From the IMG/VR virus record IMGVR_UViG_3300042401_001180: a stretch of DNA of 64,000 nt, one strand, 5' to 3'. The notes beneath the pieces were generated by a model. That model ran no database searches, was not told the DNA's origin, and saw only the letters and a list, made by a program, of their open reading frames with translations. Source of the DNA: a virus. Lineage: Duplodnaviria > Heunggongvirae > Uroviricota > Caudoviricetes. Below, one piece after another: positions 7,256 through 27,370 of this stretch; positions within the stretch are counted from its first letter, which is position 1, and each line of letters opens with the position of its first letter. Position numbers and translations under genes: made by a program.

Positions 7256-7295
7256 CAACCCCCTATTCAATTAAGAATGGGGGGTTTATAATTTG
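7256..7295 (-). terminator. rho-independent terminator (minus strand)
   Basis: Minus strand: AACCCCCCattcttaattgaatAGGGGGTT followed by gtttattt. Confidence 0.5.
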
Positions 7296-7455
7296 ATTCA
7301 AGAATTGAAAATGGTCAAGTTTAGAGTTTTAAGATTTAAAAAAATGACTTTTGACAATATGAATTTTGAATTTGGGACTATTACAGTATTAGTATCATTT
7401 ATCATCCATTTGGATCTTCAAGAAGTAAAACCAATAATTCCAACCTTTCCTCAAA

Positions 7456-7926: not shown

Positions 7927-7934
7927 CTATTATT

Positions 7935-8177: not shown

Positions 8178-8179
8178 TT

Positions 8180-9277: not shown

Positions 9278-9459
9278 TCATAACATTTTTCTTCTTTTAT
9301 TATTTTTATTTCACCCATTGTTCTTGAGTAACCGTCTTCTAAATCATAACCCGATTTTCCACATTCACAAACTTGCATATCCCATCTTTTATTAGATTGT
9401 GATTCATGTTGTTTGTTACAACTTAAACATTCCCAAGTAACCTTTTTATATTTTCCCAT
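9274..9459 (-). CDS. small zinc-ribbon protein (61 aa)
   Basis: CxxC...CxC cysteine pairs. Confidence 0.45.
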   Translation of the reverse strand: MGKYKKVTWECLSCNKQHESQSNKRWDMQVCECGKSGYDLEDGYSRTMGEIKIIKEEKCYE

Positions 9460-9469
9460 CTTAATTAAT

Positions 9470-9628
9470 TAAAATAACCACCCGTCATTAATAATGTAAA
9501 ATAAATTCCAAAACTAATAAGTGTAACCCAAAAACTATAATTTCCTGTTCTTTCTTTTCCGTGATAGTATAACCCAAATAGTAAATTAAGGATTAATAAC
9601 ACTAACATAATAATTTGACTTGTTCCCA
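9470..9628 (-). CDS. small membrane protein (52 aa), not in ORF track
   Basis: Manual translation MGTSQIIMLVLLILNLLFGLYYHGKERTGNYSFWVTLISFGIYFTLLMTGGYFN. Two hydrophobic helices. Confidence 0.3.
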
Positions 9629-9648
9629 TAATTTTGTTTTTTTTTAAT

Positions 9649-11310: not shown

Positions 11311-11348
11311 AATAAAAAAAGGTGACTCTATCAATGAGAGTCACCAAC
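11311..11348 (-). terminator. rho-independent terminator with the stop codon of the RNA ligase gene embedded in the stem
   Basis: GGTGACTCtatcaatGAGAGTCACC. On the minus strand it is followed by TTTTTTTA. Confidence 0.6.
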
Positions 11349-12464
11349 ATTATTTTTTTCACCGTATATTAAATAATCCGGATTTATCACTTTTGACACT
11401 TTTCTACGGTCACCAGTTATGGCTTTAACAACAACACCTTCGTGTGGTACTTTAGTTCCTTCTATATTGTTATTGAACACATATTTATCTTGTTCTTCTT
11501 TATTCCAATTACCCTTGTATAACAACTCAACTTGTGGTAATTGAAGACAATTAAAATGTACAGTTTCATTTATGTATGGTTGGTATACTCCATCAACTTC
11601 AACATCAAACCCCGCAAATTTAACATCAGTTAAACCGTACTCGTAGTTTTTTTGTATTCCTGCACCATATATCTCACCGTATATTACTACACCTTCACTC
11701 AAACCAAATGGTTCGTAAGTGTCTTTTACGTGAGCCCACAACTTACCTCTTATGTCATAAGTGTTTGCCACAGTTTTCCATACATCAGTATCGTAAAACC
11801 CTTGTGAGTCGGAACCCTTCTCTACGTTATGAGAACCATAAACATATTCAAATGCCGCCCATTGATTTCCAAAGAAGATTTTAACACGATCCCACAATGA
11901 TAGTTTTTTCTTTCTAACTATTCCGTAACGAGTATTTGTTCCGTGTAACTTACGAGTTATAACTACCTCATCTTCCTCATTGAACATATCAGGTACATTC
12001 TTTTGGTTAGGGAACTTGTAGTAAACTTTGAAGTTAGGGTTTTGGTGGTATTTTACTTTACGTCCACCAACACTTAACTGAACGGTTTTAACTGGTGGTT
12101 CGTATTTAGTTATACCAAGTATTCCCATCATGTCATCGCCTTCATTAACGTTTTTCTCCAATGATTTTGGTTCCAAGTATTTGAATGGTATTAACAAACA
12201 TTCAGAATAAACTCCACGAAGTTTTACGGTTCTAACCCTTTGTCCTTTACGAAGGTAGTTAGTTACTTCCATCAAGTCAGATAATCCTTGTGGTATCACA
12301 GCATCTGTAGTTGCAACAACAACCTTATCACCAACTTGGTATTCACCTTTTTTGGTTATGGCGTTCCATCCACCAACAGTAACTATTTCTATTTTATCTG
12401 CGTTTGGTATTTCAACCACTGAACCTATTTTTCCTACGTATGCTACGCTATTTTGATTTTCCAT
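11331..12464 (-). CDS. ATP-dependent RNA ligase (Rnl2/DraRnl-like) with N-terminal OB-like extension
   Basis: Nucleotidyltransferase motif I KLHGTN (KxHGxN as in T4 Rnl2). Confidence 0.6.
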   Translation of the reverse strand: MENQNSVAYVGKIGSVVEIPNADKIEIVTVGGWNAITKKGEYQVGDKVVVATTDAVIPQGLSDLMEVTNYLRKGQRVRTVKLRGVYSECLLIPFKYLEPKSLEKNVNEGDDMMGILGITKYEPPVKTVQLSVGGRKVKYHQNPNFKVYYKFPNQKNVPDMFNEEDEVVITRKLHGTNTRYGIVRKKKLSLWDRVKIFFGNQWAAFEYVYGSHNVEKGSDSQGFYDTDVWKTVANTYDIRGKLWAHVKDTYEPFGLSEGVVIYGEIYGAGIQKNYEYGLTDVKFAGFDVEVDGVYQPYINETVHFNCLQLPQVELLYKGNWNKEEQDKYVFNNNIEGTKVPHEGVVVKAITGDRRKVSKVINPDYLIYGEKNNVGDSH

Positions 12465-14884: not shown

Positions 14885-15125
14885 CAATCAACTAATATAA
14901 AATTTTCAGAGGTTAACAACTTCAAAACTTTTTTTTCGGATGTTGTATTTATTGCGAATCTTGTTGCGGTTTCGTTATTTCCTGGTTTTGAAAATATAAT
15001 TTGGAATTTTCTTTTGTTGCCGATGTAGTATGAACCTACGGTGCAATATTCTCCATCGGTATTAACAAATACTCCGTAAGATTTACATTTAAGTGCTTGA
15101 CTCAATGTTTTATATTCTGTGTTTA
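14884..15125 (-). CDS. hypothetical protein (start revised to METINTEY)
   Basis: The track ORF 14884..15237 has a terminator hairpin and a -7 box inside its N-terminus. The internal Met at 15125 directly follows the TACTTTTG box. Confidence 0.45.
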
Positions 15126-15162
15126 TTGTTTCCATACCACAAAAGTAAGAAATGTTTTTTAA

Positions 15163-15200
15163 TAAAACAAAAAATCCCTCCGTAAAGAAGGGATTTAATT
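15163..15200 (-). terminator. rho-independent terminator (minus strand)
   Basis: Minus strand AAATCCCTTCtttacGGAGGGATTT followed by TTTTGTTTT. Confidence 0.5.
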
Positions 15201-15242
15201 TATTTTTAAAAAATATCTCTTCTCTTATATTTTTCATTTTTT

Positions 15243-15539
15243 TTAATTTTTTAAAATTTCAACTAAATTACCGTCAGTAAACTTTGCGGTAAATTCAAAC
15301 CATTCTTTATCGATAAAAGTATAAAAATTAAGATACCCGTGATATTGTAATTTGGTTTTTTCATTAGATGTATATCTAAAATTTACCATTAATTCACCCT
15401 CATTTGTTATATAAACATCAGAAAGAGTGGAATCCAAACTTTTTGTTTGCCACCCTGGATTATCACCAACTTTTTCTTTTATTTCATCAGATATCGGTAA
15501 CATACCAGTATCAATGAATAAGTAATCAAACATTCCCAT
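15243..15539 (-). CDS. hypothetical protein (98 aa)
   Basis: ORF. Confidence 0.5.
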   Translation of the reverse strand: MGMFDYLFIDTGMLPISDEIKEKVGDNPGWQTKSLDSTLSDVYITNEGELMVNFRYTSNEKTKLQYHGYLNFYTFIDKEWFEFTAKFTDGNLVEILKN

Positions 15540-15554
15540 TTTATGATTTTTTTA

Positions 15555-16136
15555 TTAATCCCACCATCTTTCGATGTTGGATTCCATTAATTTGAACAAT
15601 AATCTTTGGCATCTTGCTTGGTTTTCGTGAGCAATCTCCATCGCTATTGTATGTTTATTATCCGAGTCGACTTCTTTACGTTTAAACATATTTAATTCAC
15701 CTGATAAAACCCTTTTATATTGTCTTGGGTATTTGGCAAAATATTCGTCGTAACGTTCAGACAATGTTCTATGTTTCCATTCTGAAAAACCCGGTTTATC
15801 ATCTATATCCTCAAACCAATTTTCACTTTCTTCATAGTCCATATATTCCATATGGTAAAAATCCTCTTGTTGCAAACGGATTAGTTTAACAACAAGTTTC
15901 ATACGTTCAGAGTCTCTTTTTGCTTCAGTATGGAAATCCCTATCTCCGATGTATTTTGCCTGAAATTCTATTTTCTTAGCCAATAATTCGTAAATATAAT
16001 GTTGATCCCAATCCCTATCTTTCCAAATAGTTGGTGCCCATCTCCATAGGTTTTTAACTCCTTTTGCGAAGTCTTTGTGGTAATATCTGGCTTCGAATCT
16101 CCACCATAAATAAATTTTATTAAACATATTTTTCAT
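15555..16136 (-). CDS. hypothetical protein (193 aa)
   Basis: ORF. Confidence 0.5.
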   Translation of the reverse strand: MKNMFNKIYLWWRFEARYYHKDFAKGVKNLWRWAPTIWKDRDWDQHYIYELLAKKIEFQAKYIGDRDFHTEAKRDSERMKLVVKLIRLQQEDFYHMEYMDYEESENWFEDIDDKPGFSEWKHRTLSERYDEYFAKYPRQYKRVLSGELNMFKRKEVDSDNKHTIAMEIAHENQARCQRLLFKLMESNIERWWD

Positions 16137-16242
16137 ATTAATTTTCTTTAAAAAACCACAGTGTCATTTTAACAAATAACACAATTAAAACTATTTTTAT
16201 TATTATATCCACAAAGATATGTATTTTTTTTTAAACTGACAA

Positions 16243-16608
16243 TTATTTTTTAATATAAATAGTATCAACAATTTCAAGACTAACAGGTACAATTCCTCTA
16301 CCAATAAAATTTAATTCTTGAGCAGCACCATACGATAAATCAATAATATGTTTAGATGTTTTTGGGAGTCTATCGTTAATTTTTACATACCTAACTGAGT
16401 CGTTAATAAGGTTGGTTATCTTAACTATGGTTCCGAATTTAAATGTTTTGTGTGCTGCAGTTAGACTATCTTTATGAAATCTTTCTCCTGATGCAGTTAG
16501 TCTACCTGTGTAGTTTTTACCGTAATACGTTGCGGTACCTTTGTCGATTTTAATGGGTGCAATAAATGATAAGGTTAATAACGATATAAATAATATAATT
16601 TTTCTCAT
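16243..16608 (-). CDS. secreted RlpA-like double-psi beta-barrel (DPBB) protein, putative lytic transglycosylase
   Basis: Signal peptide. GTATYYG...GRLTASGERF...LTAAHKT..FGT.VKI.N...V.VKINDRLP matches the RlpA/expansin DPBB signature. Confidence 0.7.
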   Translation of the reverse strand: MRKIILFISLLTLSFIAPIKIDKGTATYYGKNYTGRLTASGERFHKDSLTAAHKTFKFGTIVKITNLINDSVRYVKINDRLPKTSKHIIDLSYGAAQELNFIGRGIVPVSLEIVDTIYIKK

Positions 16609-16653
16609 AGCATTAAAATAAAAAATCCCTTACAAAAAGTAAAGGATCTTATA

Positions 16654-17907
16654 TTAACGTCTAAATCTGAATTCGGTTTCTATTTTTCTTTTACCGTGTT
16701 TTTTCTCCATTATCTTTTGGTGTAAGTCCCAATCAATAATTGATTCATTTGTTTGTTCTTTTTCGTCAGGAATAAGTGAATAAATTTTACCGAGTCTTTT
16801 AATTAGTTTTGTTGAAACATAATTAAATCTTTCACACTCATCAACAAAGAACTGTTCTTCTTTATTTTGATATCTAGCAAGGTGACTTAAAAACTTGTGT
16901 CTAACTTTTTGAAGTCCTTCGTCGTCGCCATTATCTTTTACCATATGACCCATACCTAACATTCTCATAAATCCAGCAATTTTACTATTACTATCCTCTG
17001 TCATTCTATCAAAAATATCTCTTTTAGAGTTTATTAAATTGACGTAAACCAAATTCATAATTGTTTTTATTTTTTCCTCCTCATCCATATTTTCATACGG
17101 TACACCAGCATGTTCCAATAAAGCATCAATTCTATCCATTTGTTCGTATAGTTTTTCAATTAAATTTTCATAACTAAAATCTCTAATTTCTTTTAGTTCT
17201 TTAATAACTTTATCATTTTCAAAAAAGTCTTTAAATTGTTCCCTTGTAATATTATTTAATTTCATTCTTGTTGCCATTTCAGTTGGTCTAACAAGGTTCT
17301 CAACATATTGGATGAAATAACTATATCTCATAAATTCATTAATAACAGGAATTCCGAAGTTTAACCCTGAACTTGAGTATGCTTGGTAATCAGCGTCTTT
17401 ACCTATCAAGTCAGTTGTCTTTTTTTGTTTATCAAACTTATGTTTAATTTCGTGAGCAATTACAGATATCAAATCCACTCTATCTCGTCTAAAAAAGTCA
17501 TATACCTCTTTAGCGTTCCAATCATCACCACTTGACACAAAACTTAACTGTAACTCAATAGTGTTGTCCGATTCTTGAATCTTCATTAATATTTTTTTAT
17601 CAAAATTAAATTTGTTTGCAACTCCAGCAGACGCCATAACTAATGGTCCGTCGTAGTCATCCATCTCGTTAATTTCAACAAACAATTCTAAATCATTTAT
17701 TTTATAATCGGATATTGTTAAATCTAAATTATCTTCAGTAAATGTTTGTCTTGTGTCGTAATCATCCATACCTTTTAAAAGGTTTAAGATTATTTCGTAT
17801 AGTTCTTCTGCAGATTCAATAATCCCTTCTGGAACACCAACAGCCTCACTTAATAGATTTTTTACTATTAAACTCATTTGGTTTTCGGTTATAATAATTT
17901 TTGCCAT
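16654..17907 (-). CDS. hypothetical protein with HExxH motif (417 aa)
   Basis: IAHEIKHKFD is a possible zinc metallopeptidase motif. N-terminus MAKIIITENQMSLIVKNLL belongs to the shared N-terminal motif family. Confidence 0.5.
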   Translation of the reverse strand: MAKIIITENQMSLIVKNLLSEAVGVPEGIIESAEELYEIILNLLKGMDDYDTRQTFTEDNLDLTISDYKINDLELFVEINEMDDYDGPLVMASAGVANKFNFDKKILMKIQESDNTIELQLSFVSSGDDWNAKEVYDFFRRDRVDLISVIAHEIKHKFDKQKKTTDLIGKDADYQAYSSSGLNFGIPVINEFMRYSYFIQYVENLVRPTEMATRMKLNNITREQFKDFFENDKVIKELKEIRDFSYENLIEKLYEQMDRIDALLEHAGVPYENMDEEEKIKTIMNLVYVNLINSKRDIFDRMTEDSNSKIAGFMRMLGMGHMVKDNGDDEGLQKVRHKFLSHLARYQNKEEQFFVDECERFNYVSTKLIKRLGKIYSLIPDEKEQTNESIIDWDLHQKIMEKKHGKRKIETEFRFRR

Positions 17908-18100
17908 ACATATAAATATATCGTAATATTTTTTTAAAAAAGTAGTATTTTTTCTACTTATAAGATATTTATTAATATGAGAAAAAAATTAAATAAAGAA
18001 GATAAACGAGTTAAAATTTCAATCACATTATCTCCAAATATTAATAAAAAAATGGAAGATAGTCTAATAAACAAGTCAAAATTAATTGAAAAACTATTAA

Positions 18101-18697
18101 TTGATTACTATGGAAACAAAATATAAAGTTTATATAATAAAGTCATTGGTTAATGATAAAATATATATTGGGTATACAAAACATTCATTAAAACATAGAT
18201 TATCTACGCATTTTAGAAATGCCAAAAAAAATTCAATGGTTAATAACAAATTTGCAAGAGCCATACTGAAATATGGTTTGGATAATTTTACTATTAACTT
18301 ACTTTATGAGTGTTCAGACAAAAATGATGCGTTAATAAAAGAAGTTTTTTTTATTAATCAATACGATTCATATAAATTAGGTTATAACTCAACAGTAGGG
18401 GGTGAAGTCGGTTCACCTAATAAAAACCACGCAGACTTTTCGGGTGAAAAAAACCCATTTTACGGTAAAAAACACGATTTAGAGACAAGGAAAAAAATAG
18501 GACAAAGAGAATATAAAACAGGTAAAGATCATATGTGGCATGGAGTTAAACATAAATCTTCATTCAAAGAGGGTGAGGAACACCCTCTCGCAATACAAAT
18601 AACGATTGGTGGTGTGAAGTATGGTTCAATATTACAAGCATGTAAAATACTAAACCTTAGTCGTTGTAAGGTAATTAAATTATCCGATAACCCCTAA
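18101..18697 (+). CDS. GIY-YIG homing endonuclease
   Basis: YKVYIIKS...IYIGYT GIY-YIG core with NUMOD-like NPFYGKKH. Lone plus-strand gene inside a minus-strand array. Confidence 0.7.
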   Translation: MITMETKYKVYIIKSLVNDKIYIGYTKHSLKHRLSTHFRNAKKNSMVNNKFARAILKYGLDNFTINLLYECSDKNDALIKEVFFINQYDSYKLGYNSTVGGEVGSPNKNHADFSGEKNPFYGKKHDLETRKKIGQREYKTGKDHMWHGVKHKSSFKEGEEHPLAIQITIGGVKYGSILQACKILNLSRCKVIKLSDNP

Positions 18698-19333
18698 CAT
18701 CCCATCTAAATGGTGATCATCATCTATATCTGAACGCAAATCTCGTTTATCCATTATTTTAATAATATCGGAAATACTGTATGGATCCATTCCGTTACCG
18801 TCAACACCCACATCCATTTTTTTACCATTACCGAATTTATTTTTATATCCTGAATGTATGTGCCCGTAAAGATGGATTACTCCTTTATTCATTCCATGCC
18901 AACTTTGAAGGGGGTAATGACAAAGTACGAAGTTTCTACCATTTATGTTAGCCTCCAAATAGTGTTGTACACTTAAAAATCGTCCTTGTACGTGGTCTCG
19001 GTTGTTCTCTATATGATGATCGTGATTCCCAAGTATCAAGTGAATGTTGTGACATACCAAACGCTCAAGGAAGATTCCAATGTTATCAAACCCACCAAAT
19101 GAAACATCACCCAACATTATTAGTGTATCGTCTTGCCCAACAACATTATTAATACCATCAATAAGTCGTTGATTCATTTCTTCTATAGTTTGAAAGTCAC
19201 GAGTAGAATCTACTGGTACCTCACCATCTTTTGTTCTCCAATTTGTCACACCGCGACAAATGTTTTTATGACCAAAATGTGTATCTGAGGTAATCCAAAC
19301 TTTTCCTGTTGTCAATAATTTTTTAAAACTCAT
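18680..19333 (-). CDS. calcineurin-like metallophosphoesterase
   Basis: DTHFGH, GDVSFGG, GNHDHH, GHIH motifs. Confidence 0.7.
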   Translation of the reverse strand: MSFKKLLTTGKVWITSDTHFGHKNICRGVTNWRTKDGEVPVDSTRDFQTIEEMNQRLIDGINNVVGQDDTLIMLGDVSFGGFDNIGIFLERLVCHNIHLILGNHDHHIENNRDHVQGRFLSVQHYLEANINGRNFVLCHYPLQSWHGMNKGVIHLYGHIHSGYKNKFGNGKKMDVGVDGNGMDPYSISDIIKIMDKRDLRSDIDDDHHLDGMLGVIG

Positions 19334-19749
19334 AATTTTATGTTAAAACGATTACGCATTTGTTCTAATTTTTCTTCAGGTACATTATGGACGTTTGTCC
19401 CTCCGTGCCGATTTTCCACCACAATTGTGAACACAGCATACCCATACTCTTTTGCTAATTTAAAGTATGGTTCCATCTCCCATTCTTGTGTGAAGGTATT
19501 AGCAACCGCAATTTCTCTATAAAACTGATCATTCACTAATGAATCCTTCATATAAGTTTCCACTGTATCTTGACAAAATTTATGAGCGTCTTTGATTTTA
19601 GAAGCATCAAATTTATATTCACCCGTTTCTTTATCGATAAAATATTTATCCGCCTCACAAACTAAAAAGTCGTGCCCAACAATTTTTTTTGCGAATGTTG
19701 ATTTTCCTGATCCGCTAACGCCTCTGATTATAAAAAGTATTTTTTCCAT
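19330..19749 (-). CDS. P-loop nucleotide/polynucleotide kinase-like protein
   Basis: Walker A GVSGSGKST, AAA_33/PNK-like size. ATGA overlap with the phosphoesterase gene. Confidence 0.55.
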   Translation of the reverse strand: MEKILFIIRGVSGSGKSTFAKKIVGHDFLVCEADKYFIDKETGEYKFDASKIKDAHKFCQDTVETYMKDSLVNDQFYREIAVANTFTQEWEMEPYFKLAKEYGYAVFTIVVENRHGGTNVHNVPEEKLEQMRNRFNIKL

Positions 19750-19772
19750 ATTACAAATATACTAATTTATTT

Positions 19773-21203
19773 TTAATTTTTATCTTCTTTAACTCTTTTT
19801 TCTATTAAAGCATTAACTTCATCTTGATGATACCATTCACTTCCTGACATCATAACTTTAACACCATTTTGTAACGCCACTTCCATTTTATTATCAAAAA
19901 ACTTCATAACATCAACGTGGTTGATTTCTTTAACACCATTTTGAATGGCGTCTTCAACATTATCCTGTCTCATATTAAAATTCCACCCTAAAACATCTTT
20001 CACTCCATTTTGAATGGTGTCCTCAATATTGAATAATTTCTGTTCCATTCCTGGATGGGTTTTCTTAACCCCATTTTGAATTGTGTCTTCAACATTTATA
20101 TCTCCCTCAAAATAATACGGATAACTTTCTTTCACTCCATTTTGAATGGTATCTTCAACGGTAATAGTTTGTTGATGCAAGGCGGATTTGGTGGACTTCA
20201 CCCCATTTTCAATGGTATTATTAATTTCTTTTTCCGTCACCTCTAATGAACCAAGACCTTTGATTTCTTTCACCCCATTTTGAATGGTATCCTCAACGCG
20301 CATCGAGTAAGACAATTTGTACAGGAGGGTGGACTTCACCCCATTTTGAATGGTATCTTCAACGTATTCATATCGGGACAGAATATTCTCTTTGGTATTC
20401 TTTACCCCTTCGTTTATGACTTCTTCGATAACACAAGAACCATCAACTTTTAGAGAACTTTCAGTATGTTTCACACCATTTTGAATGGTGTCTTCAACTA
20501 TTTCATTAATTGCAAAATGAGAAGCCTTGGTGTCCTTCACCCCATTTTGAATGGTGTCCTCAATATTGAATAATTTCTGTTCCATTCCTGGATGGGTTTT
20601 CTTAACCCCATTTTGAATGGTATCCTCAATAATAGGCCAACCCCTTCTTTCATCAGCAATGGTGTGTTTCACCCCATTTTGAATGGTATTCTCAACTAAT
20701 GTTGTTCGCCATCTTTGTCGTAGCGAGGTGGACTTCACCCCATTTTTAATGGTATTCTCAACCGGAAGAGGACGAATCATTGACAGTGGATGGGTGGACT
20801 TCACCCCATTTTGAATGGTATTCTCAACTGGATCGTTCATCAATAATTCAACCGCTTCGGTGGACTTCACCCCATTTTGAATGGTATTCTCAACCTTTGG
20901 TTTAAATAAAAATCTATTTTCAAACCACTTTTTAACGTATTCTGCGGTTTCATCATTATCCATACCAAATAACATCAACACATTATTGAATATATAATAG
21001 TTATACCACAATGTTCTATCCTTTGTGAATTCAATAGCCCATCTTTTTTCATCTGTGAAAATAAGCCACATTGATCCGTTATTATTATAAATGTCAGTCC
21101 CTTCAATCTCCTTATCAAGGGTATCAAAAATAAGTTTTTTTAAATTTTTCCGTTTTTGGGTACTCATAATGTCAAATGTATGTGATTTATTTAATATAAT
21201 CAA
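19773..21203 (-). CDS. tandem-repeat protein (16 x ~22-aa units with V-E-D/N-T-I-Q-N-G-V-K core)
   Basis: Protein shows 16 units, each with a constant decapeptide plus a 10-14 aa variable spacer. Two units are identical at both DNA and protein level. Confidence 0.6.
   Translation of the reverse strand: MIILNKSHTFDIMSTQKRKNLKKLIFDTLDKEIEGTDIYNNNGSMWLIFTDEKRWAIEFTKDRTLWYNYYIFNNVLMLFGMDNDETAEYVKKWFENRFLFKPKVENTIQNGVKSTEAVELLMNDPVENTIQNGVKSTHPLSMIRPLPVENTIKNGVKSTSLRQRWRTTLVENTIQNGVKHTIADERRGWPIIEDTIQNGVKKTHPGMEQKLFNIEDTIQNGVKDTKASHFAINEIVEDTIQNGVKHTESSLKVDGSCVIEEVINEGVKNTKENILSRYEYVEDTIQNGVKSTLLYKLSYSMRVEDTIQNGVKEIKGLGSLEVTEKEINNTIENGVKSTKSALHQQTITVEDTIQNGVKESYPYYFEGDINVEDTIQNGVKKTHPGMEQKLFNIEDTIQNGVKDVLGWNFNMRQDNVEDAIQNGVKEINHVDVMKFFDNKMEVALQNGVKVMMSGSEWYHQDEVNALIEKRVKEDKN
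19840..20900 (-). repeat. coding tandem repeat array (~66-84 nt period)
   Basis: cttcaccccattttgaatggtat(t/c)(c/t)tcaac recurs about 15 times on the plus strand. Confidence 0.6.
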
Positions 21204-21220
21204 AGTATTTATAATAAAAG

Positions 21221-21718
21221 ATGAAACACCTGATTAGAAAAATATTAAAAGAAGTGGAGGAAGAAAAATTAACAAGTCTTCAAGAAAACTTATTAGGTTA
21301 TATTTCAACCGTTGGTATTTTAGATACAATTAAAATGGTTGGTGATATTGATAATTTCAATAAAATATTACCAAGTTACTTCGACAAAAATAGTCACAAA
21401 ATAGATTTAATTAATGAACTCGTTAATAATATTAATCCTTATAATAATATATATTTTAATGATATAGGAGGAGATTTTTATTTAGATTCTGATGACGTTT
21501 ATGATAGTGGTGATTATGATAGTGGTGATGGACACACATTTGAAGAGTATATAATTAGTGTTGGTGATGGTTCTGTTAGGGTTAATACTTATGAATTTGA
21601 TGAAGATGGTAATATGTTTGATGACTCCGCCGGTTTCTATTTTTTACCACTTAAAAAGTTATCGGATGATTTATTAAATTTAGTTTTTGAATCCCTTGTT
21701 AGTTATTATTTATTATGA
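21221..21718 (+). CDS. hypothetical protein (165 aa) with MKHLIRKILKE N-terminal family motif
   Basis: ORF. Asp/Gly-rich acidic tail. Confidence 0.5.
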   Translation: MKHLIRKILKEVEEEKLTSLQENLLGYISTVGILDTIKMVGDIDNFNKILPSYFDKNSHKIDLINELVNNINPYNNIYFNDIGGDFYLDSDDVYDSGDYDSGDGHTFEEYIISVGDGSVRVNTYEFDEDGNMFDDSAGFYFLPLKKLSDDLLNLVFESLVSYYLL

Positions 21719-21737
21719 AAGAAATAATTATAAAAAT

Positions 21738-22310
21738 ATGAAAATAGTAATTACAGAAGAACAGTATAAAAAGATATTAGTAGAGAGTACGTTAAAGGAC
21801 ACACTGAAGGATTTAAAAATAAACACGGGTATTTTATTTACGTTCGGTACTGGTATTGGATCGTTTATTGGTCCTGTTGAAAGATTACTTTCAGGTTCAG
21901 GATTTTCAATGGATGAAAGGGATATCATTCTTTTAATTATTACGTCATTTGCACTTATTATAAAAGATAGTGAAGGTGTAACGTTATTAGAAAAAGTTAA
22001 AGAAAAGGGATTAATGCCAACACTAAAAGGTGTTATCAACTTTATAACAAATGTCAAGGATGTGATAAATGCTGTAGCAAAAAATTTAGTAGGTGTTACC
22101 TATTCTTTATTAGATATCTTAGGATTTACACTTCTTTTAAATCCAACAATGAAAATTATCGATGAAGTTATAAAAGATAATAATATTAGTTCTGATAACG
22201 TAGAAAGGTTACTATCGGGAGCAGCACTTGCCGTGATTGTCTATTCACTTAAAAGTGTATTTGGTAAACTTAAAGGTAAATTTAAAAAAGATGTAAATAA
22301 CGCCGACTAA
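21738..22310 (+). CDS. hypothetical protein (start at MKIVITEEQYKKIL), hydrophobic segments
   Basis: The track ORF 21687..22310 is trimmed to the internal Met that carries the family N-terminal motif. Confidence 0.45.
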   Translation: MKIVITEEQYKKILVESTLKDTLKDLKINTGILFTFGTGIGSFIGPVERLLSGSGFSMDERDIILLIITSFALIIKDSEGVTLLEKVKEKGLMPTLKGVINFITNVKDVINAVAKNLVGVTYSLLDILGFTLLLNPTMKIIDEVIKDNNISSDNVERLLSGAALAVIVYSLKSVFGKLKGKFKKDVNNAD

Positions 22311-23011
22311 TCAGCGTTATCTACAAACTCCAACTCATTTGTTTTTGGATCCCAATCAACAGTTATTGGTTTGTTTCGGAACTCATATCGTCCATTTAAC
22401 ACCGCCGCGTTAATGAAGTGAGTATTTCCATCAAACACATAACCATAACCTTCGTGGATGTGTCCAAATACGTGGATTTTAGGTTTAACTTCTTCAACAC
22501 GTTTCATTAGTTCTTCACAACCAACATTTATATTATTGTAAGGTACATAATCCAATTTACCAAATGGTGGTCCGTGAGTAATAAGGATATCAGTGTCAAC
22601 AGGAATCATATCCCATTTTTCTTTTATTTTTTCACCACGAGGAAGGTTGAATGCCCAATTATGAAACTCAGGTTGCCAAGGTGAGCCCCAAATTTTAATC
22701 ATATTGTCATAATCTTCACCAACCATCAGTAAGTCATCTTGAAGATACTCTATAGTTTTGTAACCGGTAAGAAGTCCACGAAGTTTTTGATTATCATCTT
22801 GGAATCCAAAGTCGTGATTTCCTGCAATAAAAACTTTAGTGTCGTAGTTGTTGATATTATCATACCACTTCATAAAATTTTCAATCTCAGTGATATAACC
22901 ACGACCAGTTAAATCTCCCGCATGAATAAGCATGTCACCCCCAGTCAAGAACCCACTAACTTTGTCGTGTTTGGTGTGAGTGTCGCTAATAAATGTGATA
23001 CGTTTTTTCAT
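22307..23011 (-). CDS. calcineurin-like metallophosphoesterase (second copy)
   Basis: SDTHTKHD, GDLTGRG, GNHDF, GHIHEGYG. A -7 box TATATTTGTA lies 4 nt upstream of the ATG. Confidence 0.7.
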   Translation of the reverse strand: MKKRITFISDTHTKHDKVSGFLTGGDMLIHAGDLTGRGYITEIENFMKWYDNINNYDTKVFIAGNHDFGFQDDNQKLRGLLTGYKTIEYLQDDLLMVGEDYDNMIKIWGSPWQPEFHNWAFNLPRGEKIKEKWDMIPVDTDILITHGPPFGKLDYVPYNNINVGCEELMKRVEEVKPKIHVFGHIHEGYGYVFDGNTHFINAAVLNGRYEFRNKPITVDWDPKTNELEFVDNAD

Positions 23012-23121
23012 AATACAAATATAGTAAATTAATTTAAACCTTACAAAGTAAAATATAAAAAATTATGGTTACGGTACCTAATAATACAGTTAAAACTGTT
23101 TCCAAATCTTTTTCTTTCATT

Positions 23122-23442
23122 TTAATACTTATCAATTTGATTATTAATTTTTTCTAATAACTCTTCTGATATATTCTCAACCGCTGCGATTTCTTCTAAA
23201 AGTATTTTAATATCTTTCTTAGATCTCTCCTTTGCCTTTCGGGTAGTCTTTAACTCAACCTCATACAGATAATACGCTACCTCATCAACGTTTTTTAATT
23301 TTTGAATATACTTTTCAATTCTTTGATCAAGTTTTCTGCTACCATGCACATCCATCAACTCAAGAAATGATTTAAATAACTCATCCAATCTACCTTTAAG
23401 GTATTGTATTTCTCCGTATTTTAAAATGTCTTTATCTGTCAT
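23122..23442 (-). CDS. hypothetical coiled-coil protein (106 aa)
   Basis: ORF. Confidence 0.45.
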   Translation of the reverse strand: MTDKDILKYGEIQYLKGRLDELFKSFLELMDVHGSRKLDQRIEKYIQKLKNVDEVAYYLYEVELKTTRKAKERSKKDIKILLEEIAAVENISEELLEKINNQIDKY

Positions 23443-23443
23443 A

Positions 23444-23677
23444 TTAATTTATAATTTTTATTTCACTTTCAGTTTCAATTACCACTCTTGCCCCGCAAGA
23501 TAATAATGGTTTTTTATCTCCACTCCCACAATACTTTATTCTACTTGGACCTAGTATCTCCACTTCGTTACAGTATGTATTTGTCTTACCTTCCTTGATT
23601 GTTATTACAGGAAGATCTGTGTCCTTTGTTTTATTGGACCTAACGTGGTGTTGGTTTACGTGGATTCTTGTTTTCAT
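23444..23677 (-). CDS. hypothetical protein (77 aa)
   Basis: ORF. Confidence 0.4.
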   Translation of the reverse strand: MKTRIHVNQHHVRSNKTKDTDLPVITIKEGKTNTYCNEVEILGPSRIKYCGSGDKKPLLSCGARVVIETESEIKIIN

Positions 23678-23678
23678 A

Positions 23679-24245
23679 TTAACTTAAATAATTTGACATA
23701 TTTTTAGCAGCAAGAAATGCATCTTCCATCGTTTCAATTAGTTTTGATCCTCTTAACTTAAATGGTATCACATAAGAAATTCCATCACCATCCATCCATT
23801 TTTTACCTAACTCATCTTCAGTTTCATAAAGTTCGTTAAATTTTATTTCCCATTCACTCCATTGTTCTTCATCGTAATCTTCTTTGACTGGTTTGTATTT
23901 TTCATCAAATAACCTATCACCAATTTTAAACATATTACCACCTCTATGTGTATAACCATACATTCCTTCAATTACGGGGTTGTCTGTTCCATATGTCTCA
24001 AATGTAATAACCGCAGCAACTCCGTGTGGGTAATTTTCATCAACCATCATTTGATTTTTAACATACCATCGTGCTTCGTCAATACTACCGATGTATACTC
24101 CATTAGGTGATAAAAATGAATTTTCTAATGTGTTTTCGTTTTTTGGTCCAAATGTGTGTGTTCCGATCTTTCCACCAGTTAATCTTTCAATTTCTTGGAT
24201 TTCTTCTTGTGTTATTTCTTTTCCTTTTTGTGGTTTACTTTTCAT
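23679..24245 (-). CDS. hypothetical protein (188 aa)
   Basis: ORF. Confidence 0.5.
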   Translation of the reverse strand: MKSKPQKGKEITQEEIQEIERLTGGKIGTHTFGPKNENTLENSFLSPNGVYIGSIDEARWYVKNQMMVDENYPHGVAAVITFETYGTDNPVIEGMYGYTHRGGNMFKIGDRLFDEKYKPVKEDYDEEQWSEWEIKFNELYETEDELGKKWMDGDGISYVIPFKLRGSKLIETMEDAFLAAKNMSNYLS

Positions 24246-24300
24246 AACTTTAATTACTTTTTACATTTTTATCAGTTTTTGTAAAAACTATTTTACTTTA

Positions 24301-24615
24301 TTATTCTGTAATATAAATTTTAGTTGGCCTTTCGTTCTCTACCACCTTTCCGTCATCACTAGTATGCCATTCTGTAACTCTACCAGTGTTTGGTTGTTGT
24401 TCACATTTAACAGCGTAATGTATCTGACATCCAGCAATTATTATTTCTTTACCGTTTCCACCAACAACAGCATACCAGTTTGCACTATTTCTGTTGGTTT
24501 TAACTCCAAGGATTGAATCCTCCACGATTTTGACATCACCCCAAACCGCTTGATATGATTTTCCGTCTGGTGCGACAAAGTATTGTGATGTCGTTATTAA
24601 ATATTTTCCTGTCAT
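24301..24615 (-). CDS. hypothetical protein (start trimmed to MTGKYLITT)
   Basis: The track ORF overlaps the upstream gene by 74 nt. The internal Met gives an ATGA-type junction. Confidence 0.4.
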   Translation of the reverse strand: MTGKYLITTSQYFVAPDGKSYQAVWGDVKIVEDSILGVKTNRNSANWYAVVGGNGKEIIIAGCQIHYAVKCEQQPNTGRVTEWHTSDDGKVVENERPTKIYITE

Positions 24616-24616
24616 A

Positions 24617-25249
24617 TTATTCGGATTTAGGTTCTTCACCAACCAAATAACTCGGTTCACGTCTTTTATTCTCAATGGTTTCAAACACACCTCTTATTAA
24701 AACGTGTCTAGTTCCTTTGGTTCTATACTCTTCAGGATTATCTAACACATCATCCAATAACTTGTGAATATCATTTCTTAATGTTTTTTCATCATTAGAA
24801 CCTTTTAAATCTTGAGCCATTTCTGGTGACCAAGTTAATAAAATATGTTTTCTTGGTTCAAATGTCGTTGGGTCATATACTGTTGGTGATATCGATGCCC
24901 CATTTTTAACCGGTTCAAACGCTTTTATTGGATCATACATTTCAGGTGTTAAAGATATTGAATACAAATAACACTTACCTTTTATCTTCATTCCTTCTTT
25001 ATATTTGAAAGTTTGTACTGTTAATGTTTTATCTTCACCCACTTTAAATGTTGGAAAATGTACTATTTCCAAATCATCACATTCTGAAAACACATCAAGT
25101 TTTAATAGTTCATCTTTTACTTCTTCAAGTTCTTTTGAGTTTAAGATTGGGTCCATACCTTTAAGGTAATCAATCGTTGATTCCTCATTTTTTTGGTTTA
25201 ACACGGTTTTTTCGTCACAAAGTTTTGTTACAAATTCTTCTAATTTCAT
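24617..25249 (-). CDS. hypothetical protein (210 aa)
   Basis: ORF. Confidence 0.5.
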   Translation of the reverse strand: MKLEEFVTKLCDEKTVLNQKNEESTIDYLKGMDPILNSKELEEVKDELLKLDVFSECDDLEIVHFPTFKVGEDKTLTVQTFKYKEGMKIKGKCYLYSISLTPEMYDPIKAFEPVKNGASISPTVYDPTTFEPRKHILLTWSPEMAQDLKGSNDEKTLRNDIHKLLDDVLDNPEEYRTKGTRHVLIRGVFETIENKRREPSYLVGEEPKSE

Positions 25250-25254
25250 TTTTT

Positions 25255-25569
25255 TTATTTTAATTGTTTATTTTTTTTTAAGTTATCTATATATCCTTCA
25301 ATAAGAACAATCTTTCTTCTAATTCCAATCTTATCCATATCAGCTAACATCCTCAAATAGTCATTCAAATCATCAAGTTGGTTAAACTCTTGTTTTAAAA
25401 GTTTACTAGCATCACTTTCCATCAATTCTGCCATATTAGGTTTGTTTGAATTGTTTAATATTTTAGTGTCTTCCCATTTTTTAACTAAGTCAGGGAATAT
25501 GTTTTTAAGTGCGTTCTGTTGTCTGATCGGTGTATCAGCTGGATCATCCCACGATGTGTCTGTATTCAT
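25255..25569 (-). CDS. hypothetical protein (104 aa)
   Basis: ORF. Confidence 0.45.
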   Translation of the reverse strand: MNTDTSWDDPADTPIRQQNALKNIFPDLVKKWEDTKILNNSNKPNMAELMESDASKLLKQEFNQLDDLNDYLRMLADMDKIGIRRKIVLIEGYIDNLKKNKQLK

Positions 25570-25574
25570 AATTT

Positions 25575-26648
25575 TTAATTCGATAATGGGAAATAAATTT
25601 TAGGATGTGATTGATAATTTTCCAAAACAAAATCATCAACTGTTAAATGTGATAGTAATGATAAATCCTCACCTAACGATTTATAAAATTCATCAGTTTT
25701 CATATGCTTTAGAGTTGGTAGTGGATATGGTTCTCTTGTTAATTGTTCTTTAACACCATCAATTTGATTTAGATAGATATGACAATCACCCATATTTGTA
25801 ATCAATTCGTCAGGAACCATATTAACGGTTTTTGCAATGATTTCTAATAACAATCCGTAAGATGCTAAATTAAATGGGGTTCCTAATGGTACGTCCTGGC
25901 TTCTGCAATTATACATTAATGAGATTGCTCGTTTAGGAATATTAATAGAATCATAATATTCCATAACATTTCCTATACCATCATAACATAATAACCCTTT
26001 GTATTTTTTTAAAAGATTATACCTTTCTTTCTCACTCAATTCTCTTGTATAAACTTGAAATCCATAATGACAAGGTGGAAGAACTTGGTTCGGTAAATCT
26101 GCGGGATTCCACGCTGACACAAGTATCCTACGTGAATCAGGGTTTGTTTTAAGGTCGTTGATTAGGTTTGCAATTTGATCTATTTTCTCCCAATTAATTA
26201 CTCTTACCCCATCTTCATCTTTCTCCCCAATCATACCATTTTTTCCTCTCCAACTTCTCCACTGCTTACCGTAAATTAATCCCATATCAAACATTGAATC
26301 GTTAAAATGGTGGTTACCATCTTTTACTTTTTGTTTAACTTCTTCTATTGTATATGGTTCTGAACAAGTAGTTTTGTAATTTTTTTCCCAATCACCATCC
26401 CAGATTTTACAATTGTTTTCCCATAAAAACCTAATATCTGAACTGCCACGTAAGAACCATAACAATTCGGTTACCATTGTCTTAAATGCCATTTTTTTGG
26501 TGGTAATGGCTGGAAACCCATCTTTCATATTGTGACGGATCTGTCTTCCGAATACTGAAAGTGTTCCACCATTTCTAGTTTCTTTTTTTGTACCATTCTC
26601 TAAAATATCTTTTAAGAGGTTCTGATAATCTAAATCTAATTTATTCAT
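25575..26648 (-). CDS. thyA: thymidylate synthase (ThyA family) with internal insertions
   Basis: RNGGTLSVFG, FPAITTKK, ELLWFLRG, catalytic LPPCH, and QDVPLGTPFNLASY with Asn (dUMP-specific) are present. The protein is ~40-90 aa longer than canonical ThyA. Confidence 0.8.
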   Translation of the reverse strand: MNKLDLDYQNLLKDILENGTKKETRNGGTLSVFGRQIRHNMKDGFPAITTKKMAFKTMVTELLWFLRGSSDIRFLWENNCKIWDGDWEKNYKTTCSEPYTIEEVKQKVKDGNHHFNDSMFDMGLIYGKQWRSWRGKNGMIGEKDEDGVRVINWEKIDQIANLINDLKTNPDSRRILVSAWNPADLPNQVLPPCHYGFQVYTRELSEKERYNLLKKYKGLLCYDGIGNVMEYYDSINIPKRAISLMYNCRSQDVPLGTPFNLASYGLLLEIIAKTVNMVPDELITNMGDCHIYLNQIDGVKEQLTREPYPLPTLKHMKTDEFYKSLGEDLSLLSHLTVDDFVLENYQSHPKIYFPLSN

Positions 26649-26982
26649 AACTTTCTATTATTTCGTTGAAATATATTAAATCTTTACCAATAGTTTTTTT
26701 GAAACATTTTTCTATTTTAGGCGCAGGATTTGATTTATCCATCACACCATTTTTATCCCATCCGTGGTCACAACTAAAATAATGAATATTTCCATTTTTT
26801 TGATAAACCTCATAATCATAATCTTGCCACGAAATGGTATGTAAATCCTCAAGTTTATTAGGTGTACCTTCCCAAGAAAAAGCCTTTGGTATAATAACTT
26901 CTTCTCTAGTATATTTTCTTCCTTTGTACTCCACATTATGAGTGTATTCAATTCTTTTGGTTGGATTTCCTATTTCATTCAT
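26641..26982 (-). CDS. hypothetical protein ending in IIESYE
   Basis: ORF. C-terminal motif shared with three downstream paralogs. Confidence 0.5.
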   Translation of the reverse strand: MNEIGNPTKRIEYTHNVEYKGRKYTREEVIIPKAFSWEGTPNKLEDLHTISWQDYDYEVYQKNGNIHYFSCDHGWDKNGVMDKSNPAPKIEKCFKKTIGKDLIYFNEIIESYE

Positions 26983-27370
26983 AACTTTCTATTTTTTTGT
27001 CGTTGTATGTTATTGTGATTAGTTTGGTTGGAATATTTGCATTATCCATAGCTTTATTATGACCATCAGGATAGTGTAACATTTTACTTTGTGCTTCTAA
27101 TTCCTTTCTTAAATCTAAATTTTTATAAGCAATTCTAAACCTTTCATCATTACTCAACTCTCGTTCTTCAATCTGCAATCCCCACCTTTCAGAGAATGTT
27201 TTATCGGAAGTACATAAACCAACAAACATTTCTTTGTTGGGTTTACGATAGGTTTTTTTACCATCCATTCGTGCAACTAAAAGACACATCCCAATAGAAT
27301 TATCCTTTTCATATTCCTTTGAATAATTCTCATAAGCATCATTCAATAATTCTTGTTGTTCTTTATTCAT
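26975..27370 (-). CDS. paralog family protein (MNKEQQ...IESYE) copy 1
   Basis: Shares N-terminus MNKEQQELL, WGL[KQ]IEERELS and C-terminal KLITITYN..IESYE with the 27559 and 27881 ORFs. Confidence 0.5.
   Translation of the reverse strand: MNKEQQELLNDAYENYSKEYEKDNSIGMCLLVARMDGKKTYRKPNKEMFVGLCTSDKTFSERWGLQIEERELSNDERFRIAYKNLDLRKELEAQSKMLHYPDGHNKAMDNANIPTKLITITYNDKKIESYE

Follow-up and report, generated by a model that had tools for sequence, protein, structure and literature searches.

The diversity of a previously undescribed phage repeat protein lies in its repertoire of variable cassettes and in the composition of its arrays, and the probable source of this diversity is recombination between conserved cores, not point hypermutation. 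The protein is encoded in a 64,000-nt stretch of viral DNA (the window, meaning the whole stretch analysed), and the swapping of cassettes points to a putative fast-evolving host-interaction surface.

A gene encoding 16 tandem units

The repeat-protein gene (19773-21167, minus strand) is listed as a complete open reading frame of 464 aa that begins with the ATG at 21167, the start chosen by gene callers in three public NCBI assemblies, and ends with the stop codon at 19773-19775. An in-frame TTG at 21203 gives the longer ORF (19773-21203, minus strand; 476 aa) of the preliminary description, which does exist and does contain tandem repeats. A sigma-70 promoter scan gave background level only. 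The protein opens with an N-terminal domain of 91 aa and closes with a short C-terminal helix; between them lie 16 tandem units (19851-20894, minus strand), each 22-24 aa (66-72 nt) long. The first 12 aa of a unit are a conserved frame, [VI]E[DN]TIQNGVKxT, and a variable cassette makes up the remainder; the 16 cores start, on the minus strand, at 20894, 20828, 20762, 20696, 20630, 20564, 20498, 20429, 20363, 20297, 20225, 20159, 20093, 20027, 19958 and 19886.

Translation, the unit parse and the spacing of [NE]GVK, which occurs 16 times at intervals of 22 aa (eleven), 23 aa (two) and 24 aa (two), confirmed the constant-plus-variable architecture of ~22-aa units that had been described. Given the composition of the protein, well under one GVK is expected by chance, and the 16-fold pattern is therefore not a chance one. 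The decapeptide previously called invariant is so only in part: G-V-K is present in 16 of 16 units, but other residues vary and four cores are degenerate (IEEVINEGVK, INNTIENGVK, VEDAIQNGVK and MEVALQNGVK). The earlier spacer length of 10-14 aa needs correction to ~10 aa, because the conserved block runs two residues further (x-T). At the DNA level, a repeat finder reported 11 copies at 66-nt spacing, and TRF, hindered by the unique half of every unit, picked up the array only in part.

The 66-nt period, made of a 36-nt repeat and a 30-nt unique spacer, has the geometry of many CRISPR arrays, and related arrays gain, lose and duplicate spacers with their order kept, as CRISPR arrays do. However, the reading frame of the gene has 0 in-frame stops, compared with 19-63 in the five other frames; every unit has a length divisible by 3; and core codons vary synonymously (E, GAG 8/GAA 7; G, GGG 11/GGT 3/GGA 2; V, GTG 11/GTT 4/GTA 1; K, AAG 9/AAA 7). 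Further, the phage array is translated and under protein-level selection, with a cassette pN/pS below 1; a folded N-terminal domain is always fused to it among the 150 matches listed; it has no acquisition polarity, since the array varies in its middle and keeps both ends; and its spacers have neither protospacer matches nor any above-chance matches outside family genes. A CRISPR-like or other DNA-level element is ruled out by these coding signatures and by the absence of protospacer-like matches. The preliminary description had also allowed for an assembly artefact, but the identical 464-aa protein is found on 4 contigs from at least three independent assemblies, and the array is thus not artefactual. 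The chance that the ORF is incidental to either is negligible, and we conclude that the gene is real and coding.

An exact 77-nt duplicate occurs within the array, with copies at 20542-20618 and 20005-20081 (both minus strand). It encodes IQNGVK-KTHPGMEQKLFN-IEDTIQN, that is, the cassette KTHPGMEQKLFN with parts of both flanking cores, and its breakpoints fall inside those cores; around it, the DNA repeat finder reported 97 nt at 95% identity. The duplicate supports the recent intragenic duplication proposed earlier, although the two units said to be identical differ at their first residue (I vs V). The same cassette is also found in the closest homologue (L003).

A large family in viral metagenomic data

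Database searches identified more than 1,458 clusters of related proteins, with E-values down to 1e-104, including 180 relatives in IMG/VR on contigs of up to 304 kb. No family relative, and hence no host or prophage clue, was found among the 185,579 prokaryotic genomes of GTDB, and a tblastn search of GenBank phages gave no match to the repeat protein; the sole DNA match for the window in GenBank phages was to the thymidylate synthase of Flavobacterium phages. The source phage is large and of freshwater type, and no cultured phage is known to carry the gene. The protein matched no curated family in Pfam and nothing in PHROGs, NCBIfam or PADLOC, in agreement with the earlier statement that it does not resemble common repeat families, and we found no description in the literature on the motif or on hypervariable repeat proteins of jumbo phages. 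We conclude that the family is large, unannotated and confined to viral metagenomic data.

Names attached to homologues did not hold up. No domain match lies behind the JGI names 'peroxiredoxin' and 'transcriptional regulator', and the dodecin label (PF07311) arises from stretches of only 15-20 residues that match profile positions 11-35 of a domain of ~64 residues; no stretch is significant alone, the score being a sum over repeats, and PF07311 has no match in the window protein.

Across the family, units are spaced by 22 aa in 898 intervals and by 23 aa in 228. A comparison of repeat number among related phages, proposed in the preliminary description, showed that unit number varies freely, reaching about 30, and that cassette content and order differ as well; arrays of 1-2 units appear to exist.

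Cassettes are modular, conserved and exchanged

Over the family as a whole, positions 1-12 nearly all have an entropy of 0-1.7 bits (2.9 bits at position 11, the x of the frame), and cassette positions 13-22 have one of 3.9-4.15 bits, near-maximal, with no preferred residue and no hydrophobic periodicity. The spacers thus differ nearly completely between units, as had been noted, but they are discrete cassettes that recur and do not show free-running hypervariability. In 317 arrays we counted at least 738 cassette types, 56% of them singletons, and the rarefaction curve was unsaturated. Cassettes recur in other phages in differing order and context, those present in at least 5 proteins having, at the median, 4 different neighbours on the left and 4.5 on the right, and identical cassettes persist in divergent phages.

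Because the arrays are not collinear, pairwise dN/dS on equal-length gene pairs was uninformative, and minimum-spanning-tree counts on homologous cassettes were used in its place. The resulting pN/pS values were 0.39 for short cassettes, 0.30 for long cassettes and 0.25 for the N-terminal domain. Homologous cassettes are therefore under purifying selection about as strong as that on the rest of the protein.

In each unit, seven polar residues show 63-92% conservation across the family. The conserved polar residues of the frame could make the constant face, not the cassettes, the functional surface. In such a case, ladders of E, D, T, Q, K and T would bind a periodic ligand (a polysaccharide, nucleic acid, ice or a filament) or mediate oligomerisation, and the cassettes would be no more than connecting loops that are tolerated, recombination having made them various as a side effect. 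This degree of polar conservation exceeds the needs of a purely structural core, and the free variation in unit number, down to the apparent arrays of 1-2 units, is also in keeping with a functional constant face. However, the purifying selection on cassettes and the persistence of identical cassettes in divergent phages argue against it and make it decidedly unlikely. The pI of ~5.2 is not that of a DNA mimic, a reading that is unsupported.

How arrays change is evident from two loci, L040 and L041, that are 99.7-99.9% identical over 7.6 kb but carry a 293-nt block in one array and a 425-nt block in the other (4 vs 6 cassettes). Related arrays differ in general by cassette gain, loss and duplication. 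We conclude that cassettes are modular and that blocks of them are replaced between near-identical phages.

Several other sources of new cassettes were considered. A foreign origin is ruled out by GC3, which is 0.31 in cassettes and 0.30 in the N-terminal domain, so that the cassettes are native coding DNA. Compensated frameshift or inversion is ruled out by the phase of shared 11-mers, since distinct spacers sharing an 11-mer do so in frame in 111 pairs, in the two other frames in 6 and 6, and in reverse complement in 12. Nor does the array look like the target of a diversity-generating retroelement: no cassette copy exists outside family genes in the window or the loci, and variation extends over all cassette positions.

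Flanking domains and predicted fold

The N-terminal domain (91 aa; 20895-21167, minus strand) is predicted to consist of a helix, four beta-strands and two helices, and the alignment-based AF2 model has a pLDDT of ~90 over residues 1-90. Its invariant residues are D25, W34, W43, E46, T48, L53, W54, N56, F60, W81 and E83. A profile of the domain found 444 representatives at 50% identity, and among the 150 matches listed the domain is always N-terminal and is followed by repeats in most. The domain is the signature of the family, and it may serve as an N-cap or an anchor. No significant PDB relative was found by sequence or by Foldseek, and a word-index search with the domain returned only 5 close truncated relatives. 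The C-terminal tail, MSGSEWYHQDEVNALIEKRVKEDKN (19776-19850, minus strand; from translation), is predicted to be helical, the helix spanning 448-463 when modelled from the single sequence and 448-457 when modelled from the alignment; the same tail ends short homologues such as P0055, and it is a possible C-cap. Many homologues have long, conserved, irregular C-terminal cassettes. The view that the flanking parts are distinct from the repeats is thus supported.

Structure prediction, suggested earlier as a means of separating a beta-solenoid from beads on a string, favoured the former in part. Both AF2 runs predicted ordered beta structure in the repeats, and the models resemble beta-helices, but the repeat pLDDT was only 60-70 and Foldseek with the repeat-protein models gave no significant match, known fibres included. 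For repeat sequences, AF2 has a known tendency to predict beta-solenoids too often (PMC11795689). The hydrophobic ladder and Asn/Gly turn typical of beta-solenoids are present, with V1 hydrophobic in 94% and I5 and V9 in 100% of units, and with N7 at 87% and G8 at 100% family-wide. Taken together, these data give moderate support to a solenoid fold for the repeat region. Known right-handed beta-helix and beta-solenoid proteins (the autotransporter and TPS adhesins Ag43, TibA, UpaB and EtpA, phage tailspikes and curli CsgA), a class characterised by stacked rungs of ~18-25 residues with parallel beta-sheets, have no sequence similarity to the phage repeats. They are not known to combine, in every rung, a frame of 12 near-identical residues with an insert of 10 fully variable ones, nor to exchange single-rung cassettes; the comparison involves a phage fold predicted with moderate confidence.

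Another solenoid considered was the FNIP or FGxxFN leucine-rich repeat (LRR) of giant viruses and Dictyostelium, which is defined by FGxxFN (FNx7IP) and LxxLxF beta-strand motifs (PMC9525666). Like the phage repeats, the FNIP LRR (Crov588, PDB 6NYR; PF05725) is viral, has a 22-residue repeat with constant and variable segments and occurs in large diversified repertoires (PMC9525666). The family profile matches Crov588 in register with a 22-aa period (E 3.9e-16, 62 bits), with 'VEDTIQNGV' aligned to 'xENVLPNxL', a weak similarity of the form E-N-x-[IL]-x-N-x-[VL]; this hmmsearch E-value is, however, an accumulation over ~25 weak repeats, and the 35% probability given by hhalign was equalled by 1 of 20 permuted controls. 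Moreover, the FGxxFN and LxxLxF motifs are absent from the phage repeats, in which the variable part is a contiguous maximal-entropy 10-mer; the AF2 models do not resemble LRR horseshoes; and the FNIP hosts are eukaryotic giant viruses, whereas the present family is of bacteriophages. With no PF05725 match in the window protein at E≤1, the missing motifs and the control-level hhalign probability, membership is ruled out, and even a divergent relationship is highly improbable.

Genomic neighbourhood

In the window, an AAA_33 kinase gene lies 24 nt downstream of the repeat gene in the same direction and is followed by a metallophosphoesterase gene, so that the three appear to be co-transcribed; a homologue of Tad6, a type I Thoeris inhibitor, lies 2.5 kb away. 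In 52 dereplicated loci, the neighbours that recur are thymidylate synthase, the kinase, the phosphoesterase, GIY-YIG, cREC_REC and an Ocnus-like protein, and several have no function assigned by the Pfam or PHROGs scan. The GIY-YIG homing endonuclease is present in 11 of the 52 loci, and conserved neighbours also include a 105-aa downstream ORF and the phrog_14949 protein. No recognisable recurrent capsid, tail or baseplate gene was found near the repeat gene in these loci, and the setting is one of genes for nucleotide metabolism, RNA-repair-like functions and anti-defence (Tad6). The repeat gene of two distant jumbo-phage loci is opposite in strand to its neighbours and stands among unknown genes. 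The neighbourhood argument for function is one of guilt by association.

These data bear on whether the protein is part of the virion. A beta-helical rod anchored to the capsid or tail by its N-terminal domain could act as an exposed fibre, whisker or adhesin, in which variable loops would bind the host surface and cassette swaps would tune adsorption or host range. We regard this as unlikely, though worth keeping in mind, given that the identified neighbours are nucleotide- and RNA-metabolism enzymes and small unknowns, that the gene appears co-transcribed with enzymes, and that neither Foldseek nor PHROGs revealed a resemblance to known fibres.

The neighbourhood also bears on a quite different role. 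Multi-core RiPP precursors, such as cyanobactin PatE, carry conserved flanks around short hypervariable cores behind an N-terminal leader. The repeat protein could likewise be a RiPP-like or protease-processed precursor, its conserved cores being recognition or cleavage sites, its cassettes the released peptides and its N-terminal domain the leader. The formal pattern is the same, with conserved flanks around repeated maximal-entropy segments that lack structural periodicity in one polypeptide, and the cassettes are individually conserved and context-independent, in an open repertoire; the recurrent neighbours of unassigned function also leave room for such a role. Against this, the Pfam and PHROGs scan of the recurrent neighbour families revealed no maturation enzyme, be it a protease, a cyclase or another modifying enzyme. 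The phage protein differs from PatE further in its tightly fixed cassette length, predicted order, C-terminal cap and up to ~30 units, and the conserved V/I/V positions and NG turn, the C-terminal helix, the irregular C-terminal cassettes of many homologues and the beta structure predicted in both AF2 runs all count against a precursor, which is very improbable.

A proposed explanation

The explanation that we favour, tentatively but as a serious possibility, is that of a repeat scaffold, capped at its ends, in which a constant frame carries a variable ridge that recombines and probably binds host factors. The conserved 12 residues of each 22-aa unit would form the structural frame of one rung, with a hydrophobic ladder of V1, I5 and V9, an Asn-Gly turn at N7-G8 and polar ladders of E2, D3, T4, Q6, K10 and T12, and the next ~10 residues would be a solvent-exposed cassette. 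Stacking of ~16 rungs would give a rod, constant along one side and bearing a variable ridge, with the N-terminal domain and the C-terminal helix as its caps. In the DNA, the 36-nt conserved cores would serve as homology blocks, so that recombination from core to core, within the gene, with tandem paralogues or with co-infecting relatives, could duplicate, delete or swap whole cassettes; array content would therefore change much faster than the surrounding genome.

We infer that the variable ridge is a putative binding surface for variable host molecules. The surroundings of the gene are of early type, with genes for nucleotide metabolism, RNA-repair-like functions and anti-defence; for this reason we take the most likely site of action to be the interior of the infected cell, where the protein would serve host takeover or counter-defence, and not the virion. 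The ligand-display or decoy role raised in the preliminary description is a possibility compatible with the data. A bolder version, which we consider doubtful, is a phage-encoded combinatorial recognition system, in which a scaffold displays individually selected cassettes that are reshuffled core to core in co-infection, yielding strain-specific binders or mimics directed at host defence or takeover targets.

Such a system would have a parallel in jawless vertebrates' variable lymphocyte receptors (VLRs), which are assembled somatically from LRR cassettes by dedicated machinery. Both combine a solenoid scaffold (predicted in the phage) with whole-repeat cassette exchange through short homology and a very large repertoire; the phage diversity, in contrast, is germ-line diversity between genomes, presumably generated by ordinary homologous recombination, and there is no homology between the two.

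Biological significance

If the favoured reading is true, the family represents an abundant, entirely uncharacterised class of phage proteins, with more than 1,400 sequence clusters in viral metagenomic data only, in which exchange of whole cassettes renews a variable ridge faster than its surroundings change. Loci of fast turnover usually mark the front line of phage-host conflict, in receptor recognition or counter-defence, and the protein would offer a directly testable way into the pressures to which large freshwater phages must adapt. With its 12-residue constant frame and 10-residue insert and more than 700 unrelated natural cassette types, the scaffold would also be of interest to protein engineers. 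Should the protein instead prove to be a peptide precursor, viruses would be shown to carry a multi-core RiPP-like system of a new kind. If, on the other hand, combinatorial recognition is its function, large freshwater phages would possess a germ-line counterpart, at the protein level, of the VLR-type cassette receptors, and few of their loci would be more polymorphic.

A protein-coding array of constant cores and variable cassettes

The preliminary description placed the repeat gene at 19773..21203, and our ORF list has an open reading frame there, on the minus strand; the gene callers of three public assemblies, all holding an identical gene, start it at an ATG at 21167, giving 464 aa. Parsing of the protein yielded the 16 tandem units originally counted, in which eleven of the intervals between [NE]GVK motifs measure 22 aa, two measure 23 aa and two 24 aa, and the unique flanks are a 91-aa N-terminal region before the units and a 25-aa tail after them. 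The conserved core of each unit is real but comprises 12 residues ([VI]-E-[DN]-T-I-Q-N-G-V-K-x-T) rather than 10, and only G-V-K of the supposedly invariant decapeptide is invariant across all 16 units. Similarly, two units thought identical differ in their first residues, although a 77-nt stretch is duplicated exactly between them (20542-20618 and 20005-20081) and has its ends within the cores on either side.

At the DNA level, 11 repeat copies have an exact 66-nt spacing, and the 36+30-nt geometry resembles a CRISPR array. However, the repeat-gene frame contains no stop codons, compared with 19-63 in the other five frames, and invariant core residues are specified by different synonymous codons (E, GAG 8/GAA 7; G, GGG 11/GGT 3/GGA 2; V, GTG 11/GTT 4/GTA 1; K, AAG 9/AAA 7). 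Because the frame is open and synonymous codons alternate at these residues, the repeat is maintained at the protein level. These coding signatures exclude a CRISPR array, and the probability that the repeat is a DNA-level element or artefact is close to nil.

Core GC3 in the array of the repeat gene (19851-20894, minus strand) was 0.44, compared with 0.23 for the long ORFs of the window, with G/C-ending codons (ACC, GGG, GTG, AAG) favored far above the rest of the phage; the G/C-rich cores possibly reflect concerted evolution. A small GGGTG...CACCC hairpin in some units produces five terminator-like matches on the antisense strand, compared with 0.8 expected.

A family of metagenomic phage proteins

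In agreement with the initial impression that the protein does not resemble common repeat families, searches of Pfam, PHROGs, NCBIfam and PADLOC gave no significant match, and tblastn against GenBank phages gave none. Relatives were found in >1,458 clusters of a large metagenomic protein collection (E-values down to 1e-104; 255-784 aa among the best 120 clusters), and their names are absent or obviously spurious; the Pfam label "dodecin" on some homologues is an artefact of summing over repeats. Every homologue examined has the same N-terminal domain followed by the same units, and the comparison of repeat number proposed earlier showed that unit count varies between homologues. In IMG/VR, 180 relatives were found, the longest contig carrying one being 304 kb; the window is part of a 270.5-kb metagenome-assembly contig, and other members sit on contigs of 165 and 91 kb. 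A search of the genomes of 185,579 bacterial and archaeal species gave no relative.

When the N-terminal domain alone was used as a profile, 444 representatives at 50% identity were retrieved; all of the 150 listed have the domain at their N-terminus, and most have the repeats after it. The few proteins without repeats look truncated or chimeric. Three proteins (P0229, P0178 and P0244) join the domain to unrelated C-terminal sequence. In one, that sequence looks like the C-terminal portion of a family X DNA polymerase; in another, like an outer-membrane beta-barrel. Such fusions are probably chimeras of gene calling or assembly.

The family profile matched Crov588, a giant-virus FNIP/FGxxFN leucine-rich-repeat (LRR) protein, in register and with the same 22-aa period (E 3.9e-16), a score accumulated from about 25 repeat matches, each very weak. 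Profile-profile comparison of three units with FNIP gave 35% probability, which was equalled by 1 of 20 column-permuted controls. The motifs that define the FNIP/FGxxFN family (PMC9525666) are absent from 593 units of our family, in which their positions correspond to the variable segment. On these grounds we rejected membership, and a divergent FNIP LRR is very improbable. The family belongs to none of the known families tested, and we found no description of it in the profile libraries, GenBank phages or the literature as far as searchable.

Cassettes are modules

Among 593 distinct 22-aa units from across the family, positions 1-12 are nearly all strongly conserved, position 11 being the variable x. 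G8 is 100% conserved, hydrophobic residues occupy I5 (100%), V9 (100%) and V1 (94%), K10 is conserved in 92% (the remainder mostly Arg), and N7 and T12 in 87%. Positions 13-22 have an entropy of 3.9-4.15 bits (maximum possible 4.32), with neither a residue preference at any position nor hydrophobic periodicity. Unit length is tightly controlled (898 intervals of 22 aa, 228 of 23 aa).

The cassettes are modules, not noise. Identical cassettes reappear in different proteins in differing order, and for those found in at least 5 proteins the median number of distinct neighbors is 4 on the left and 4.5 on the right. The 317 arrays contain 738 cassette clusters at 70% identity, 56% of them singletons, and the rarefaction curve is still climbing. 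Minimum-spanning-tree comparisons of homologous cassettes put pN/pS at 0.39 among cassettes of 10-12 aa and at 0.30 among long ones, compared with 0.25 for the N-terminal domain; thus, an individual cassette is conserved once in existence. Conservation and reuse of individual cassettes speak against a functional constant face with cassettes as tolerated loops, and we consider this reading quite unlikely.

Cassettes and N-terminal domain have equal GC3 (0.31 and 0.30), indicating that cassettes are native coding DNA, and R, H, Q, P, W and S are over-represented in them relative to the phage proteome. No cassette matches beyond chance were found outside family genes, and cassette comparison rejected the idea that cassettes are frame-shifted or inverted forms of each other.

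Recombination within the array

The array is a recombination hotspot. At four loci with N-terminal-domain DNA 99.3-100% identical, arrays differ by cassette insertion, deletion, duplication and replacement, with order kept. Two related phage loci, L040 and L041, differ by 17 mismatches over 7.6 kb (99.7-99.9% identity), and their family genes share an identical 418-nt prefix and 420-nt suffix; mid-array, one has a 293-nt block of 4 cassettes where the other has a replacement of 425 nt and 6 cassettes. Homology for such exchanges is most obviously supplied by the 36-nt cores; the 77-nt duplicate of the repeat gene ends within them. The concern that the repeats might be an assembly artefact was not borne out: the same 464-aa protein occurs, without differences, on four contigs that come from three or more assemblies, and 14 loci share one identical 633-aa variant, making short-read chimerism unlikely as the cause of array differences.

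The window has only one copy of the repeat gene. A second paralogue occurs in 13 of 52 loci, mostly directly adjacent. Most such pairs are in same-strand tandem (L030/L031, about 7290-8702; L037, 6001-6687), and in one pair of loci (L047/L054, about 9380-9950) the second copy is on the opposite strand a few kb downstream.

Predicted fold

Structure prediction, suggested at the outset, resolved the N-terminal domain better than the repeats. AlphaFold2 with a 70-sequence alignment gave an ordered N-terminal domain (helix, four strands, two helices; pLDDT about 90) and modelled the repeats at only 60-70; without an alignment, mean pLDDT was 66.6 and pTM 0.64, with 10-residue block means alternating higher and lower along the array. 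Because AF2 over-predicts beta-solenoids for repeat sequences (PMC11795689), we rate the modelled stacked-repeat (beta-solenoid) fold of the array as no more than plausible. AF2 also predicted a C-terminal helix. The V/I/V ladder, the invariant Gly after Asn and the fixed unit length, all independent of AF2, fit a regular stacked repeat with caps, and the lack of an in/out pattern at the ten variable positions implies that these form loops external to the core rather than a third coil face. A multi-core peptide precursor would also alternate constant and variable segments; beside these features of a stacked repeat we regard it as improbable, more so than tolerated loops.

Genomic neighborhood

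An AAA_33 P-loop kinase gene (19330-19749) lies 24 nt downstream of the repeat gene and is overlapped by 4 nt by a calcineurin-like metallophosphoesterase gene (18680-19333); all three are on the minus strand and appear co-transcribed. A second calcineurin-like phosphoesterase (22307-23011, minus) lies within a few kb, and the kinase, both phosphoesterases and an RNA ligase (11331-12464, minus; phrog_968, E 8e-58) constitute an RNA-repair-like set. A GIY-YIG and NUMOD3 homing-endonuclease-like ORF (18101-18697, plus) overlaps the 3' end of the first phosphoesterase gene by 18 nt from the opposite strand, and could stimulate recombination nearby. This ORF, the RNA ligase and a thymidylate synthase also lie within a few kb of the repeat gene, as does, at a distance of 2.5 kb upstream, a 188-aa protein homologous to Tad6, the type I Thoeris inhibitor (23679-24245, minus; PF25188, E 9e-14, 52 bits against a cut-off of 27). 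The thymidylate synthase (357 aa; 25575-26648, minus) appears to carry inserted segments, given that its match spans 279 profile positions (29-307); it holds the sole cultured-phage nucleotide match of the queried 15000-27000, to Flavobacterium phage immuto (80%). The divergently transcribed ORF adjoining the repeat gene (21221-21718) has a perfect 15-nt tandem duplication (21499-21529, plus) that codes for a repeated YDSGD pentapeptide.

In 52 dereplicated loci, recurrent same-strand neighbors were a 105-aa protein of undefined family directly downstream (23 loci), thymidylate synthase (19), a related GIY-YIG endonuclease (11), the kinase-phosphoesterase pair following the repeat gene (9), a cREC_REC domain protein and an Ocnus-like protein. 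In two distant jumbo-phage loci, the family gene is opposite in strand to its neighbors, amid small genes of undefined family. No recognizable capsid or tail gene was recurrent in the 52 loci. Such neighbors favor action within the cell, in takeover or counter-defence, and we consider a virion fibre or adhesin unlikely.

Other features of the window

As is typical of large lake phages, the window contains a tRNA gene cluster (44369-55208, all minus; 21 by ARAGORN, 21 by Rfam, 23 loci combined), including tRNA-Ile(tat), two tRNA-Met(cat) and three tRNA-Arg, and, a few kb away, a full-length GOLLD RNA (59175-59578, minus; RF02032, 323 bits against a gathering score of 150, E 1e-91). Two adjacent minus-strand ORFs (48467-49111 and 49101-49607) contain a short, highly conserved stretch (22-56 aa, 50-88% identity) that recurs in six or more small ORFs at a distant jumbo-phage locus (L001, 12892-17051), suggesting that these small proteins form a multi-copy family sharing a conserved module. 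Two large paralogous minus-strand ORFs (481 aa, 39679-41124; 539 aa, 41720-43339) match phrog_10912 (kinase) and phrog_857 (unknown) in their C-terminal parts.

Interpretation

The reading we favor, tentatively and at somewhat less than even probability, is that the protein would be a capped repeat scaffold in which a constant frame carries a ridge of exchangeable, individually selected 10-residue cassettes, that array content would turn over by recombination between conserved cores, and that the protein would act inside the cell in takeover or counter-defence. Like LRR and FNIP proteins, variable lymphocyte receptors (VLR) and beta-helical adhesins, the family combines constant and variable segments on a repeat scaffold; unlike them, it has a contiguous maximal-entropy variable insert in every rung and exchanges whole-rung cassettes. 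Blocks are replaced between near-clonal genomes, the repertoire is open and each cassette is under purifying selection; in combination, these findings suggest selection on which cassettes a phage carries, and such selection points to an interaction surface in host-phage conflict.
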